From Candidatus Azambacteria bacterium GW2011_GWA2_42_9 (GTDB taxonomy: Bacteria > Patescibacteriota > Minisyncoccia > UBA10092): DNA of 35,511 bases. A program made the position numbers and the translations under genes. The DNA is taken from positions 1 to 35,511 of the forward strand of contig LCEQ01000006.1 in the NCBI GenBank assembly GCA_000994805.1, read 5' to 3'. The notes under the pieces were generated by a model. The model worked only from the letters and a program-made list of their open reading frames with translations. It was not told the origin of the DNA and searched no databases. Positions 18,929 to 21,906 of this stretch are shown here, piece by piece. Position 1 is the first letter of the stretch. Each line of letters opens with the position of its first letter.

Positions 18929-18948
18929 ACCGGATTAAAAAAGTGAAT

Positions 18949-18978
18949 CCCCGGGGCGCGCTGCTGCGCGCCCCGGGG
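18949..18978. terminator. 12-bp all-GC hairpin between convergent genes
   Basis: CCCCGGGGCGCG-CTGCTG-CGCGCCCCGGGG. Confidence 0.65.
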
Positions 18979-18992
18979 TGTTTGTTCCCGAA

Positions 18993-19343
18993 CTACTCTG
19001 AGTCGAGAACGATGATCATTCTCGTTTTCTTTCGAGTTATCCGTGATTTTTCCGTAAGAGGAGCCAAGATCACCTTGGTAGCTGGCGTGTGAGCACTGTG
19101 AGTATTCCGACTTAACGCCAATTGCCTGGCTTCAACAATTGTTTCCGGCCAGTTTTTATGGCCGTGACCCTCTGGGCATCTGTACCAATTCATTACTGGA
19201 ATTCGATTAGTAAATTTTGGCCTAAGACTGCGGTATGTGGCTCCCAAATGCCGAAGTGGGCACAATACATCGGGACCACTAATTTGTACCAGTTCTAGCT
19301 TTTCTACACTTAAACCCGACAGATCGCATAAATCGAAAGTCAT
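18993..19343 (-). CDS. hypothetical protein with two CPxxH motifs (possible Zn binding)
   Basis: AAGGAGG SD before ATG 19343; CPLRH and CPEGH. Confidence 0.6.
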   Translation of the reverse strand: MTFDLCDLSGLSVEKLELVQISGPDVLCPLRHLGATYRSLRPKFTNRIPVMNWYRCPEGHGHKNWPETIVEARQLALSRNTHSAHTPATKVILAPLTEKSRITRKKTRMIIVLDSE

Positions 19344-19421
19344 GATCAATTCCTCCTTATGGAGAAAATTGATGGCATGCATACTAAAATTCAGCGCAAT
19401 GCTGATTTAGTATGTGATTAT

Positions 19422-19450
19422 ATTATATTACAATAAATCAGTTCTGTCAA
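19422..19450 (-). promoter_or_regulatory. perfect consensus sigma70 promoter
   Basis: TTGACA (19450-19445), 17 nt, TATAAT (19427-19422). Confidence 0.75.
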
Positions 19451-19561
19451 ATGTATGCATTCAACCGATCGGTTTAATACGTGCATTTTAATCAAAAAAA
19501 TTTTATTTTCATTAAAACTATTATATAATAAAATTAAGTTAAAATTAAATTTAATAAACTT

Positions 19562-20143
19562 ATGAAGTACGAACTGCCCAAATTGGAATACGGCTACGAC
19601 TCGCTTGAGCCGTATATTGACGCCAAGACAATGGAAATCCACCACACTAAGCATCATCAGGGTTATATTGATAAACTTGATGCCGTTTTGGAAAAATATC
19701 CCACAATAGCGGACAAGAGATTAGGGGATTTAATAAAAGAATTACCGACTCTCGCGATAGATGAGACCGACAAAACGGTTTTAAAAAACAACGGCGGTGG
19801 CCATTTGAACCATTCTCTATTTTGGCAGATTATGAGCCCGCAAAAGAATATTGACACAACTCTTGCTGAAGAAATAACAAAAACTTTCAACTCAACTGAT
19901 GAATTTAAAAAGCTTTTTAGCGACACCACAACAAAACATTTCGGAAGTGGCTGGGCGTGGTTGGTAAGAGATGAAGGCGGCGCATTAAAAGTTTACTCAT
20001 TGCCTAACCAAGATTCGCCCTTGGCTTTGGGTCACACTCCGATTTTCGGCTTGGACATTTGGGAACACGCCTATTATCTCAAATACCAGAACCGCCGCGC
20101 CGAATACGTTGATAACTGGTGGAACGTTTTGAAATTATTGTGA
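19562..20143 (+). CDS. sodA: Fe/Mn superoxide dismutase, Mn-type signature
   Basis: HHTKHH, NGGGH, FGSGWAWL, NQD, DIWEHAYY. Confidence 0.93.
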   Translation: MKYELPKLEYGYDSLEPYIDAKTMEIHHTKHHQGYIDKLDAVLEKYPTIADKRLGDLIKELPTLAIDETDKTVLKNNGGGHLNHSLFWQIMSPQKNIDTTLAEEITKTFNSTDEFKKLFSDTTTKHFGSGWAWLVRDEGGALKVYSLPNQDSPLALGHTPIFGLDIWEHAYYLKYQNRRAEYVDNWWNVLKLL

Positions 20144-20455
20144 GGGGTTGACCCCGCCCTTGAGATTTCTATAAAGTAATAAGTATGTTTTATATGTATG
20201 TGCTCTTATTAGATAATGATCAGCTTTACATTGGTTTTACTAATGATCTTAAAAAACGTATTAAATTGCATAAAGAAGGGAAAGTATTCACAACTAAGAA
20301 ATTTCTTCCGGTAAAACTTGTATATTATGAGTGTTATCTTGATAAAGAAGATGCTGAACAAAGAGAATTTATGATAAAAAGATTCGGTAGTACTTACTCC
20401 CATCTAAAAAAGAGAATTACCAACAGTATAAAGAAATCTCAAGGGCGGGGTTGAC
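20144..20455 (+). mobile_element. putative small mobile cassette: GIY-YIG gene bounded by inverted and direct repeats
   Basis: 20-bp perfect IR at 20151-20170 and 20432-20451; 9-bp DR GGGGTTGAC at 20144-20152 and 20447-20455. Confidence 0.6.
20185..20454 (+). CDS. stand-alone GIY-YIG nuclease (UPF0213/SLX1-like)
   Basis: FYMYVL...LYIGFT.DLKKRIKLH..G...T...LVYYE......A..RE. Confidence 0.9.
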   Translation: MFYMYVLLLDNDQLYIGFTNDLKKRIKLHKEGKVFTTKKFLPVKLVYYECYLDKEDAEQREFMIKRFGSTYSHLKKRITNSIKKSQGRG

Positions 20456-20478
20456 AGATTCTGTAGATTTGATATACT
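20451..20478 (+). promoter_or_regulatory. sigma70 promoter pointing into the structured region
   Basis: TTGACA (20451-20456), 16 nt, TATACT (20473-20478). Confidence 0.65.
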
Positions 20479-20484
20479 CAAGGT

Positions 20485-20940
20485 AGGTTGGGTAGCGGGC
20501 TAGTAGTAGCCCGTGATTACAGCCCAATCCTGCGACTGACCAACGATGGTCAGTCGCAGGATTGACGGTTCTTTTCTTCTCAACAAAGCCAAAAAATCGG
20601 CGCGGCAGTCTTTGCCAAACACCATCAGACTGTCCGAATCTGCCAGAGACTAAACCCCTGCGGTTTGCTTCTGCCGCGCCAAACAAAAATACCGCCTTGC
20701 GCCTGATCATCAGCGGTCAGGGGCAAGGCGGGACGCCTTCCATGGGAGACGGATGGCTCTTACCGTGGCAAGGCCAGACGGCACAGGCCCACCACCCTCT
20801 ATCCAAGTCCAAGCCATCCTGGATAGAGGCGCACTTTTCCTAACGAATCCCGGCCGCATCTACCAAGCCGCGGCTCGGGTGGCCGCCCAAACCCGTCAAA
20901 AGCGGGCCGTGGGCATGGCAGTCACCAAACGGGAGAGCGG
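20485..20940 (+). ncRNA. candidate large structured non-coding RNA of unknown class
   Basis: GC-rich intergenic region with at least eight helices, long-range pairings and a possible pseudoknot; upstream promoter; no credible ORF. Confidence 0.6.
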
Positions 20941-20949
20941 GAATTTCTT

Positions 20950-21906
20950 TCATTCCAAAACACTCCCAATAAAATCTTTATGGCCGTTTAAAAATTCTTG
21001 CGCTGATAAAATCTTCCCGCCTTCAAGCTGTAATTTTTTTATTATTAAAACACCAGCTCCGCATTTCACTCCCAACAATACCCCAATATTTTCAAGTATG
21101 TTGGGGTGTTGTAATGTAAAGATTTCGCCGATTTGGTGATTATTTTTATCTTCTGAGATATTGGCTTCTATAATTTTAAGAATTTTATTTTTGATATTAG
21201 CGTAAGCGCCCGGCCATGGATAATACGCCCGAACCATTCTTTCAATTTCTTCCGCCGATTTTTGCCAATCAATTTTTCCGTCTTCTTTTTTTATTATTTT
21301 CGTATAAGTCGCTTTATTGTATTCTTGGGGAACCGGTTTTATTTTCCCCGAGATATAATCGGGAATTGTTTTTATCAAAAGTTCCGCCCCCAATTCAGCA
21401 ATTTTTTTAGAAAGTGTTTCATAAGTATCGCCATTAGCTATAAGCAATTTGCTATAAGCAATCACTGCTCCGTGATCCATTTCTTCATCAACTTCCATAA
21501 TCGTCACGCCCGTTTCTTTATCGCCGTTTAAAATGGCCGTTTGGATGGGCGAAGCACCGCGGTAATAAGGAAGAAGTGAGCCGTGGACATTTATAAAACC
21601 ATAAACCGGTATGTCTAAAATTTCTTTTGGTAAAATTTTTCCATAAGCGGCGATAATTGCCAGATCCGATTTTAAATTTTTAAATTGTTCTAAAAATTCC
21701 AAATTATCGCGCAATTTTTTAGGCTGGAAAACCGGAATGTCGTGTTTTTCCGCCAGCACTTTTGCTGGCGGGGGAGTGAAAATCTGTTTTCTGCCAACCG
21801 GCTCGTCGGGATTTGTGACAACCGCTGCCGGCGTATAGCCAACATCTATCAATTTTCCCAAAACTATCGCCGCGAATTCCGGCGTCCCGAAAAAAACGTA
21901 TTTCAT
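20950..21906 (-). CDS. fmt: methionyl-tRNA formyltransferase
   Basis: FFGTPEFA, AAYGKILP, INVHGSLLP.YRGASPI, MDHG. Confidence 0.96.
   Translation of the reverse strand: MKYVFFGTPEFAAIVLGKLIDVGYTPAAVVTNPDEPVGRKQIFTPPPAKVLAEKHDIPVFQPKKLRDNLEFLEQFKNLKSDLAIIAAYGKILPKEILDIPVYGFINVHGSLLPYYRGASPIQTAILNGDKETGVTIMEVDEEMDHGAVIAYSKLLIANGDTYETLSKKIAELGAELLIKTIPDYISGKIKPVPQEYNKATYTKIIKKEDGKIDWQKSAEEIERMVRAYYPWPGAYANIKNKILKIIEANISEDKNNHQIGEIFTLQHPNILENIGVLLGVKCGAGVLIIKKLQLEGGKILSAQEFLNGHKDFIGSVLE
21076..21111. repeat. 36-bp imperfect palindrome, in-frame in fmt
   Basis: CAATACCCCAATAT-8nt-ATGTTGGGGTGTTG; encodes QHPNILENIGVL. Confidence 0.7.

Follow-up and report, generated by a model that had tools for sequence, protein, structure and literature searches.

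A candidate lineage-restricted structured RNA gene between sodA and fmt in a Parcubacteria family

Locus organization and base composition

The region between sodA and fmt was analysed in a DNA stretch of 35,511 nucleotides (nt) (contig LCEQ01000006.1; hereafter the window) of Candidatus Azambacteria bacterium GW2011_GWA2_42_9, whose genome (G000) consists of 548 kb in 31 contigs and is 89% complete. Relatives of this genome are designated G002, G003, G007 and so on, and L067 denotes a metagenome contig carrying two copies, a and b, of the element described here. The element is located on the plus strand between sodA and the convergent fmt gene, where the segment 20485–20948 forms a GC island. 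On balance, it is probably a lineage-restricted, independently transcribed gene for a structured non-coding RNA (ncRNA) of a family not described in Rfam, encoded on the plus strand, and it is referred to here as the sodA-fmt RNA.

The G+C fraction reached 0.61–0.635 at positions 20600–20899 compared to 0.404 for the whole window, while the flanks of the RNA region remained at 0.285–0.35 on one side and 0.32–0.41 on the other. This was the longest GC island in the window, with ten consecutive 150-nt windows of at least 0.55 G+C. An earlier interpretation made from the letters of this DNA (the sequence-only reading) had described a GC-rich gap downstream of a GIY-YIG nuclease gene, and these values agree with it. 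The gap between the nuclease open reading frame (ORF) and fmt consisted of 495 bases, and the ORFs within it gave no Pfam matches. The neighbours of the GC island which could be named using Pfam were an Fe/Mn superoxide dismutase (SOD), the GIY-YIG protein and a methionyl-tRNA formyltransferase. The features of the RNA locus, followed by the two flanking genes, were as follows.

20451–20478, plus strand: sigma-70-type promoter, TTGACA, 16-nt spacer, TATACT, with the TG of an extended -10 element (11 of 12 positions matching)
20485–20572, plus strand: 5' domain, with a hairpin at 20495–20514 and a genome-specific perfect 18-bp hairpin at 20525–20564
20573–20598, plus strand: pyrimidine-rich tract, then the conserved unpaired linker AACAAAGCCAA (20582–20592)
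20599–20680, plus strand: central domain with a perfectly paired 10-bp closing stem, GGCGCGGCAG/CTGCCGCGCC
20681–20691, plus strand: A-rich linker, 5' of the hairpin at 20692–20731
20692–20731, plus strand: hairpin with closing CCGCCTTGC/GCAAGGCGG
20732–20844, plus strand: genome-specific segment; contains a hairpin at 20796–20829 and, at about 20760, a second loop of the CTTACC type
20845–20947, plus strand: conserved 3' core (AATCCC linker, P4, P5 and degenerate P6)
20849–20879, plus strand: P4 hairpin of the 3' core, loop ATCTACCAAGCC
20885–20914, plus strand: P5 hairpin of the 3' core
20929–20947, plus strand: degenerate P6 of the 3' core
20948–20952, no strand: junction with the fmt stop; neither the last helix nor the terminator of the relatives is present
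19562–20143, plus strand: sodA (Fe/Mn superoxide dismutase), named by Pfam
20950–21906, minus strand: fmt (methionyl-tRNA formyltransferase), named by Pfam, with def next

Promoter and terminator

The promoter predicted by the sequence-only reading could be confirmed, including the TG before its -10 box, and it was the best of seven promoter-like sites in 20000–21200. At the homologous loci, every copy starts with this promoter, which matched at 12 of 12 positions in G003 and at 12 and 11 of 12 in the two L067 copies. Slightly altered forms of the junction GGGGTTGACAG are also found in G003, G007, G009 and the two L067 copies. Placed from the -10 box, the transcript would start near 20485, about 7 nt after the promoter. 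An intrinsic terminator on the plus strand, made up of a 9-bp G+C hairpin and a T run, could be identified in G003 and L067, and the same sequence is present in G007; in these relatives the terminator is located 40–100 nt before fmt. Nothing terminator-like was found between the window RNA and the fmt stop.

A search of the genome contigs for the promoter pattern returned 21 loci (L046–L066), only two of which hold the RNA (L061 and L062). These two do not represent further homologues, because over the stretch compared their sequences are identical to those of the G007 and G002 copies. The promoter motif is a general strong promoter of the phylum. The form TTGACA-N6-GTAGATTTGRTATAMT was observed as a strong promoter in many Patescibacteria records, upstream of unrelated genes and RNAs, and also upstream of tuf in an Eubacteriales record. 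At L053 (Sungbacteria; minus strand, reading down from about 4050) and L059 (Parcubacteria; from 3380), about 400 nt of non-coding sequence, G+C-rich in part, separate the promoter from apparently homologous ORFs that each have a purine-rich ribosome-binding site. This stretch may be a conserved long structured leader.

Folding of the window copy

The plus strand of the region folded to a minimum free energy of -217.5 kcal/mol, compared to -167.0 ± 6.0 kcal/mol for 100 shuffled sequences (z -8.37), and none of the shuffles equalled it. The description of the region as highly structured was thus upheld. All nine complementarities listed by the sequence-only reading are present at the coordinates it gave, seven of them being perfect and two requiring a bulge or mismatch. 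The perfect ones are 20525–20542/20547–20564 (18 bp), 20692–20700/20723–20731, 20796–20805/20820–20829, 20599–20608/20671–20680, 20787–20792/20909–20914, the 8-nt pair 20751–20758/20812–20819, and 20495–20502/20507–20514, which was counted as perfect with one G.U included. A bulge or mismatch is required by 20849–20857/20870–20879 and 20756–20766/20929–20938.

The multibranch-closing helices of that reading are all present as complementary sequence, but 20787–20792/20909–20914 and 20756–20766/20929–20938 are rivalled by local hairpins which the homologues support, namely P5 at 20885–20914 and the P6 remnant at 20929–20947. The segment proposed to form a pseudoknot (20751–20758/20812–20819) is present in the window's genome only, with no homologous counterpart. 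Hairpin loops of the CUUACC or CUACC type were found, post hoc, to be complementary to the 5' end of their own RNA (GGUAGGU/AUCUACC in the window; UAGGUAA/UUACCUA in G003). Presumably, the GGUAG of tRNA D-loops would also complement such loops.

Homologues and conserved anatomy

The arrangement of sodA and convergent fmt with the RNA between them was also found in G003, G007, G002 (more diverged) and L067. The copies were 324–504 nt long, and a G+C fraction of 0.55–0.65 was observed in five lineages, with flanks of about 0.35–0.40. Every homologue folded better than all of its 100 shuffles, with z-values of -4.48 (G003), -3.60 (G007), -4.85 (L067b) and -4.09 (G002). Copy a of L067 is short, its 5' domain leading directly to the terminator, and copy b is full. 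Positions 2240–3010 of L067 were seen to be a tandem segmental duplication consisting of promoter, short RNA, a remnant of the fmt 3' end, a second promoter, the full RNA and fmt.

Comparison of the copies revealed a shared layout. It begins with a variable 5' domain, whose closing stem lies about 8–10 nt from the predicted start, followed by a pyrimidine tract and the unpaired motif AAYAAAGCCAA. The linker AACAAAGCCAA is identical in G003 and G007 and reads AATAAAGCCAA in L067b, and only GCCAA of it is found in G002. The central domain is closed by a 7–11-bp G+C stem whose sequence varies between copies; G003 keeps the pairing through a double change from G-C to A-U relative to the window, G007 and G002 have other closed stems at this position, and L067b has none. 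In G003 and L067b, a stem CCGTTGC.../...GCAACGG follows the same A-rich linker. A-rich linkers ending in AAUCCC are also shared, and they lead to a 3' core of three hairpins, followed in the relatives by a helix P7 and the terminator. P4 has a CUUACC-like loop, P5 is built as GCCC-UA-CCG...CGG-GAU-GGGC with a CCACAAA-like loop, and the P6 loop is AGUGAGC.

The 3' core was described by a covariance model (R1; 118 positions, 22 pairs), which scored 119.6 bits in G007, 115.1 in L067b, 103.5 in G003 and 73.0 in the window, where the match covers 20843–20969 (E 2.9e-20). RNAalifold analysis of the four 3' regions gave 42 pairs, seven of which had double-sided changes. When the four copies were aligned by fitting to R1, 84.1% of cells paired, compared to 34.6–57.5% with the partners slid by 1–3 columns, a value to be read together with the shuffles reported under the interpretation below. 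Among the 88 cells, nine hold a G.U or U.G pair; read from the other strand these would turn into C.A mismatches, and since they fit the plus strand only, that strand is favoured. These results support a conserved structure but, coming from a model-fitted alignment of only four sequences that are related, fall short of proof. The 5' domains aligned too poorly with MAFFT for a second model. Six-frame tblastn among the copies gave comparable weak matches in all six frames on both strands, and because all frames behave alike, the similarity is at the nucleotide level with no single frame conserved.

The conserved unpaired stretches also bear on the alternative that the transcript is a base-pairing regulatory small RNA, in which the pyrimidine tract, the AACAAAGCCAA linker or AAUCCC would pair with mRNAs, for example at ribosome-binding sites. 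No other unpaired stretches are as well conserved as the linker and the pyrimidine tract, which are single-stranded in most predicted folds, and a strong promoter with a terminator is typical of small RNAs. However, exact complements of the 11-nt linker were no commoner than those of a control in the 12 family genomes, and the extra matches fell inside coding regions at unrelated places. The conserved G+C-rich multi-helix structure, at 330–510 nt, goes far beyond what seed pairing needs, and the pyrimidine tract may pair internally with GGGAGAG in L067b and G007. We regard this alternative as improbable. A helix between the pyrimidine tract and GGGAGAG after P4 could be formed in G003, G007 and L067b at about -10 kcal/mol each, in differing register, and such a long-range helix is possible as an idea only.

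Distribution

The loci were compared by means of fmt in a 12-genome family, which is also the whole order, and fmt was found in 11 of the 12 genomes. In four other genomes of genus g2, the query used gave no sodA match. A DNA search of 61 relatives (cut-off E<1e-4) matched inside the RNA body only in G003 (E 1.6e-11, 74% identity). From a metagenome scan with the SOD protein, 80 loci were kept, the best 18 of which (L067–L084) were profiled and seven of these read; L067, with a SOD 70% identical, was the only RNA holder among the metagenome loci examined. At E<=0.01, R1 detected nothing beyond the known copies in the 12 family genomes. Across 151 genomes of the class it recovered the three training genomes and one borderline match (19 bits, E 0.009), and a pattern of the P5–P6 motifs, applied to 401 class genomes, found only G003 and G007. 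Beyond the family, the RNA was not detected in further class genomes, of which 146 were covered by R1 and 389 by the motif pattern.

Phage and plasmid collections gave no match to the RNA. Two pattern scans of viral contigs returned 73 chance loci and 0 loci, respectively, and none of the 73 reached an R1 E-value below 0.2. When the window's genome was searched at the DNA level, only the region itself and a palindrome self-match were returned; a cluster of genomic repeats, such as repetitive extragenic palindromes or miniature inverted-repeat elements, was rejected as the hairpins do not recur there. Within what was searched, the predicted RNA is confined to four of the 12 genomes of one family and one metagenome contig.

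The invariable position raises the alternative of a cis-acting element, in which the 3' ends of sodA and fmt-def would be insulated or tuned, either by convergent transcription from the strong promoter or by the structured block itself. The RNA always stands between the convergent genes, and in the window there is no terminator-like site before the fmt stop. On the other side, the relatives terminate 40–100 nt ahead of fmt, G004, G005 and G009 keep the gene pair without the RNA, at a sodA-fmt spacing of 55–130 nt, and insulation needs no conserved internal loops. This explanation appears quite improbable.

Comparison with known RNA families

A covariance-model scan, suggested in the sequence-only reading as a check on its proposal of a new RNA, was run with Rfam 15 on the whole window. 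No family reached its gathering score in the region, and two tRNAs were detected elsewhere. At E<=10, the segment 20300–21100 produced ten matches, all with E of at least 1 and mostly microRNA models on hairpins. The homologous loci L014, L037 and L038 gave five matches at E<=1, all sub-threshold, and L067 gave none. Three of the sub-threshold matches, all on L038 and on the RNA strand, touch the 3' end of the RNA or lie just beyond it; their scores against the gathering values were 24 versus 50 bits for HgcC, 23.3 versus 49.5 for anti-hemB and 22.3 versus 75 for mir-76. ARAGORN detected no tRNA or transfer-messenger RNA (tmRNA) in the region. By these scans, the predicted RNA family is absent from Rfam, and a literature search, not carried to full-text level, found no published description of it.

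Individual candidates were considered in turn. RNase P RNA (RF00010) and tmRNA (RF00023) were rejected since the genome's own copies map elsewhere, at C28:2196–2537 (72 bits, E 1.4e-22) and C9:19218–19600 (132.7 bits), respectively, and the statement of the sequence-only reading that the region is neither of the two therefore stands. The 6S RNA model (RF00013) did not match in the region; its only match in the genome was a weak one at C3:17975–18120 (L033 1501–1646; 16.3 bits, E 0.11). That match has a promoter-like site upstream and a G+C hairpin followed by a T run downstream, and it is a plausible candidate 6S RNA. A group I intron with a GIY-YIG gene was also rejected: the Rfam scans gave no intron match, and the RNA is intergenic with its own promoter. 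Moreover, the nuclease ORF is located upstream of that promoter in a separate hairpin, unlike an ORF in an intron loop.

Signal recognition particle (SRP) RNA could be found neither with RF00169 in any of the 12 family genomes nor with RF01854 in the window's genome. The Ffh M domain (PF02978) was missing from all 51 relatives searched, with 14 of 14 controls positive. Matches to PF00448 were only at the level of the P-loop (6 of 25 genomes), with no true SRP54-type GTPase, and none of the 25 genomes searched had an FtsY-type GTPase. The sodA-fmt RNA is thus not a hidden SRP RNA, because neither SRP RNA nor the SRP protein domain was found in the relatives searched, in line with Nelson and Stegen 2015 (PMC4508563), who report that all Parcubacteria genomes lacked detectable ffh and ffs.

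These results bear on the more general alternative that the region encodes a very diverged universal RNA, namely RNase P RNA, tmRNA, 6S or SRP RNA. Its size and strong promoter suit a housekeeping RNA, and no SRP RNA was found in the family. This explanation is nevertheless very improbable: RNase P RNA and tmRNA lie elsewhere, a plausible weak 6S candidate is present at C3, the SRP protein domain is missing along with the RNA, the loss of ffh and ffs having been published, and the region itself has no relevant Rfam match and is absent from sister species.

RNAs such as 6S and Ms1 bind RNA polymerase; they have a strong promoter, are abundant and structured, and are accessory rather than essential. 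The sodA-fmt RNA resembles them in its consensus-type strong promoter, and its abundance and accessory role would be further likenesses. It differs in being multi-domain instead of one long interrupted helix with a central bubble, in lacking an RF00013 match in the region, and in that a separate weak 6S candidate is found elsewhere. G+C-rich ncRNA genes can be detected as GC islands in A+T-rich genomes, as in the HgcC family (RF00062), and the present island in an A+T-rich genome is alike in this respect. The HgcC match (E 0.035) falls on the 3' part of the G002 copy, on the same strand; it stays far below the gathering score, rests on generic G+C hairpins and extends past the RNA terminator, and the window, G003, G007 and L067 have no such match.

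The adjacent GIY-YIG nuclease gene

The gene adjoining the RNA occupies the loop between the arms of a perfect 20-bp inverted repeat, the right arm of which abuts the -35 box.

20149–20172, no strand: left inverted-repeat arm, outside the RNA; it belongs to a hairpin immediately following the sodA stop, with the GIY-YIG gene in the loop
20185–20454, plus strand: GIY-YIG nuclease ORF, 89 amino acids (PF01541, E 1.1e-12)
20435–20458, no strand: right inverted-repeat arm with a GGGG-TTGAC end entering the -35 box; 20-nt perfect repeat

No GIY-YIG gene is present between sodA and the RNA at the G003, G007, G002 and L067 loci. Proteins of the same type were found in eight of the 12 family genomes at 1–8 places each, including seven places in G003, eight in G007 (several with stops) and four in G009, which has no RNA. 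Such numbers, with several copies carrying stops, fit a small selfish gene family. In contigs assembled from other runs, the arms are joined without the gene: one joint (20143 to 20447) skips 303 nt, and a second (20173 to 20429) skips 255 nt with 17 other letters between. These gene-free joints are tentative, the matching flanks being only 26–30 nt long. The nuclease gene is an unrelated and probably mobile insertion, because it sits in a repeat loop, is multi-copy and occurs in the RNA-less G009.

HEARO is among the Rfam models. The sequence-only reading had offered two possibilities, that the RNA is independent of the nuclease or that it partners with it as HEARO and omega RNAs do with IscB. 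The first agrees with the non-conserved adjacency. The second, a guide or partner RNA of the adjoining nuclease, has adjacency in the window's genome as its sole point in favour, where a structured RNA of a few hundred nt stands beside a small nuclease gene as in HEARO and omega RNA systems. It failed at the comparative level: none of the four other RNA loci has an adjoining nuclease gene, and co-occurrence breaks down in G009, where the four GIY-YIG places are accompanied by no RNA. Further differences are that the locus holds a GIY-YIG protein of 89 amino acids and not IscB or TnpB (this refers to the locus neighbours; a genome-wide IscB/TnpB search was not made), that the gene lies in an inverted-repeat loop with the RNA promoter downstream of it, and that the Rfam models gave no match. 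A guide function is barely credible.

Other insertions were observed around the gene pair. In G003 (L014 1262–1385), two tandem palindromic elements of about 61 nt each lie between the sodA stop and the RNA promoter, at the place of the hairpin which holds the GIY-YIG gene in the window. Upstream of sodA, about 630 nt (18929–19561) separate it from a patatin-like gene, a gap which measures 12 nt in G003 (L014 634/647). This stretch contains a minus-strand ORF at 18993–19382 (129 amino acids, no Pfam match), in which a strong AGGAGG precedes an internal ATG near 19343. The ORF may be a second small inserted gene at the sodA-fmt hotspot.

The 3' end of the window copy and strain variation

The sequence-only reading had given the RNA candidate a length of about 455 nt. 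The window copy is not a clean unit of that length, since the last helix and the terminator are missing by comparison with the homologues. Of the traits proposed for the RNA family, the promoter and linker are present in the window together with P4 and P5; its P6 has degenerated, and it has neither P7 nor the terminator. Contigs of all four DNA runs break at 20947/20948. One X15 contig (record 19), with 99% identity across 148 letters, spans the break and places about 123 additional letters between the RNA end and the fmt stop. A loose contig end from another run carries a hairpin and then a T-rich run just before fmt. Because contigs break here and one bridges the break with extra letters, the window may represent a deletion variant or a collapsed assembly at 20948.

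Almost no variation was observed inside the RNA among the strain contigs of the four DNA runs; uncovered stretches in X14 and X15 carry no information in this respect. One variant, T>C at 20808, is located in the loop of the hairpin 20796–20829.

Interpretation

The sodA-fmt RNA is read here as a plus-strand gene of its own. Transcription would start near 20485 and, in the relatives, would end at the conserved intrinsic terminator before fmt. The product would be modular, with variable 5' and central domains, an unpaired motif, A-rich linkers and a conserved 3' core. It may be abundant and accessory and act in trans. The anatomy, the conserved boundaries, the homologues, the lack of a conserved frame and the lack of a tie to the nuclease are shown by the comparison, while transcription, action in trans and a partner are inferred. 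The conserved loops and linkers would be recognised by a protein or by another RNA, in a scaffold or sequestering role, leaving the peripheral helices free to vary. Within this reading, a protein-binding or scaffold role takes roughly two thirds of our confidence. The suggestion of a large ncRNA of a new class is supported to the extent that the family is absent from Rfam and has its own promoter.

A number of observations weigh against this reading. The first group concerns strand and transcription. The minus strand folds to -219.6 kcal/mol (z -6.25), and because this raw energy is similar, thermodynamics alone leaves the strand undecided. Transcription of the plus strand is deduced from sequence, none of the 16 listed runs being RNA. 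The 18-bp hairpin at 20525–20564, with its T-rich run, has a terminator-like score on the plus strand and is found in no homologue; much transcription in the window's genome may stop after about 85 nt, resembling the short copy in L067. The second group concerns the comparative support. The known copies amount to five full-length or near-full-length and one short, all related. The covariation statistics are weak and come from four related sequences in an alignment fitted to R1: shuffles paired at 79.8 ± 2.2%, 27 of 500 reaching the observed 84.1%, and the double changes in four of 22 pairs were matched or exceeded in 29 of 500.

A third group concerns loss and turnover. At the G009 locus, the -35 box and the terminator are kept with the body deleted, the G005 locus has a degenerate promoter and a remnant of about 45 nt, and in G004 sodA and fmt are about 55 nt apart without any RNA; the element is dispensable, being deleted in sister species. 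It also evolves fast: the G002 copy lacks the 3' core (no R1 match at E<=0.01), L067b lacks the central domain, and a 113-nt segment is unique to the window, without counterpart in G003, G007 or L067b. The window copy itself is without P7 and terminator, its P6 is broken, and fmt follows at once. No partner protein or target was found, and the complement of the linker occurred in the family at the rate of a control pattern.

From such losses follows the alternative of a decaying or neutral G+C hairpin-rich remnant at the sodA-fmt hotspot, perhaps transcribed but without function, of which the window would hold a partly deleted example. Its hairpins would have built up at this place or stem from an older element. 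It is favoured by the scarred losses in G009 and G005 and the absence in G004, by the gain and loss of modules between close relatives, by the missing terminator and P7 and degenerate P6 of the window, by the mobile genes in the same region (the GIY-YIG gene and the extra ORF upstream of sodA which G003 lacks), and by the modest covariation. Neutral decay would not, however, account for a G+C fraction of 0.55–0.65 kept in five lineages, for copies which all fold better than their shuffles, for a near-perfect promoter and a terminator kept exactly at the boundaries, for conserved loop and linker motifs with some compensatory changes, or for the two copies kept in L067. This alternative is considered rather unlikely.

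More tentatively, and as a possibility we would not yet favour, the RNA may be a new class of large (about 330–510 nt), abundant, multi-domain RNA confined to one Parcubacteria family, acting as part of a ribonucleoprotein or as an RNA binder. Module gain and loss would then reflect rapid adaptation and not decay.

Compared with what is known, a functional structured RNA at this locus would be in familiar company. OLE, GOLLD, ROOL and raiA are large orphan structured ncRNAs of bacteria. Like them, the sodA-fmt RNA is a stand-alone gene of several hundred nt with many helices and conserved unpaired linkers, a restricted taxonomic range and, as for them at discovery, no known function. Unlike them, it matches no Rfam model and has a much narrower range, and it turns over its modules faster, with far fewer representatives and weaker covariation support. 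The family is new, while its general kind, the orphan structured ncRNA, is familiar; its range is very narrow and its comparative support thin. Its general importance is limited by that narrow range, by its dispensability and by the thin covariation.

Parcubacteria genomes are streamlined to about 0.5 Mb, contain little non-coding DNA and have lost the SRP. That several hundred nt of G+C-rich structured RNA are kept in such genomes, under a near-consensus promoter and in several lineages, points to an RNA function specific to the lineage, in organisms which are not culturable. If the reading is true, the sodA-fmt RNA would join the few large ncRNAs known from bacteria as a new family, and it would provide a target for metatranscriptomics and for RNA-protein work in the candidate phyla radiation.

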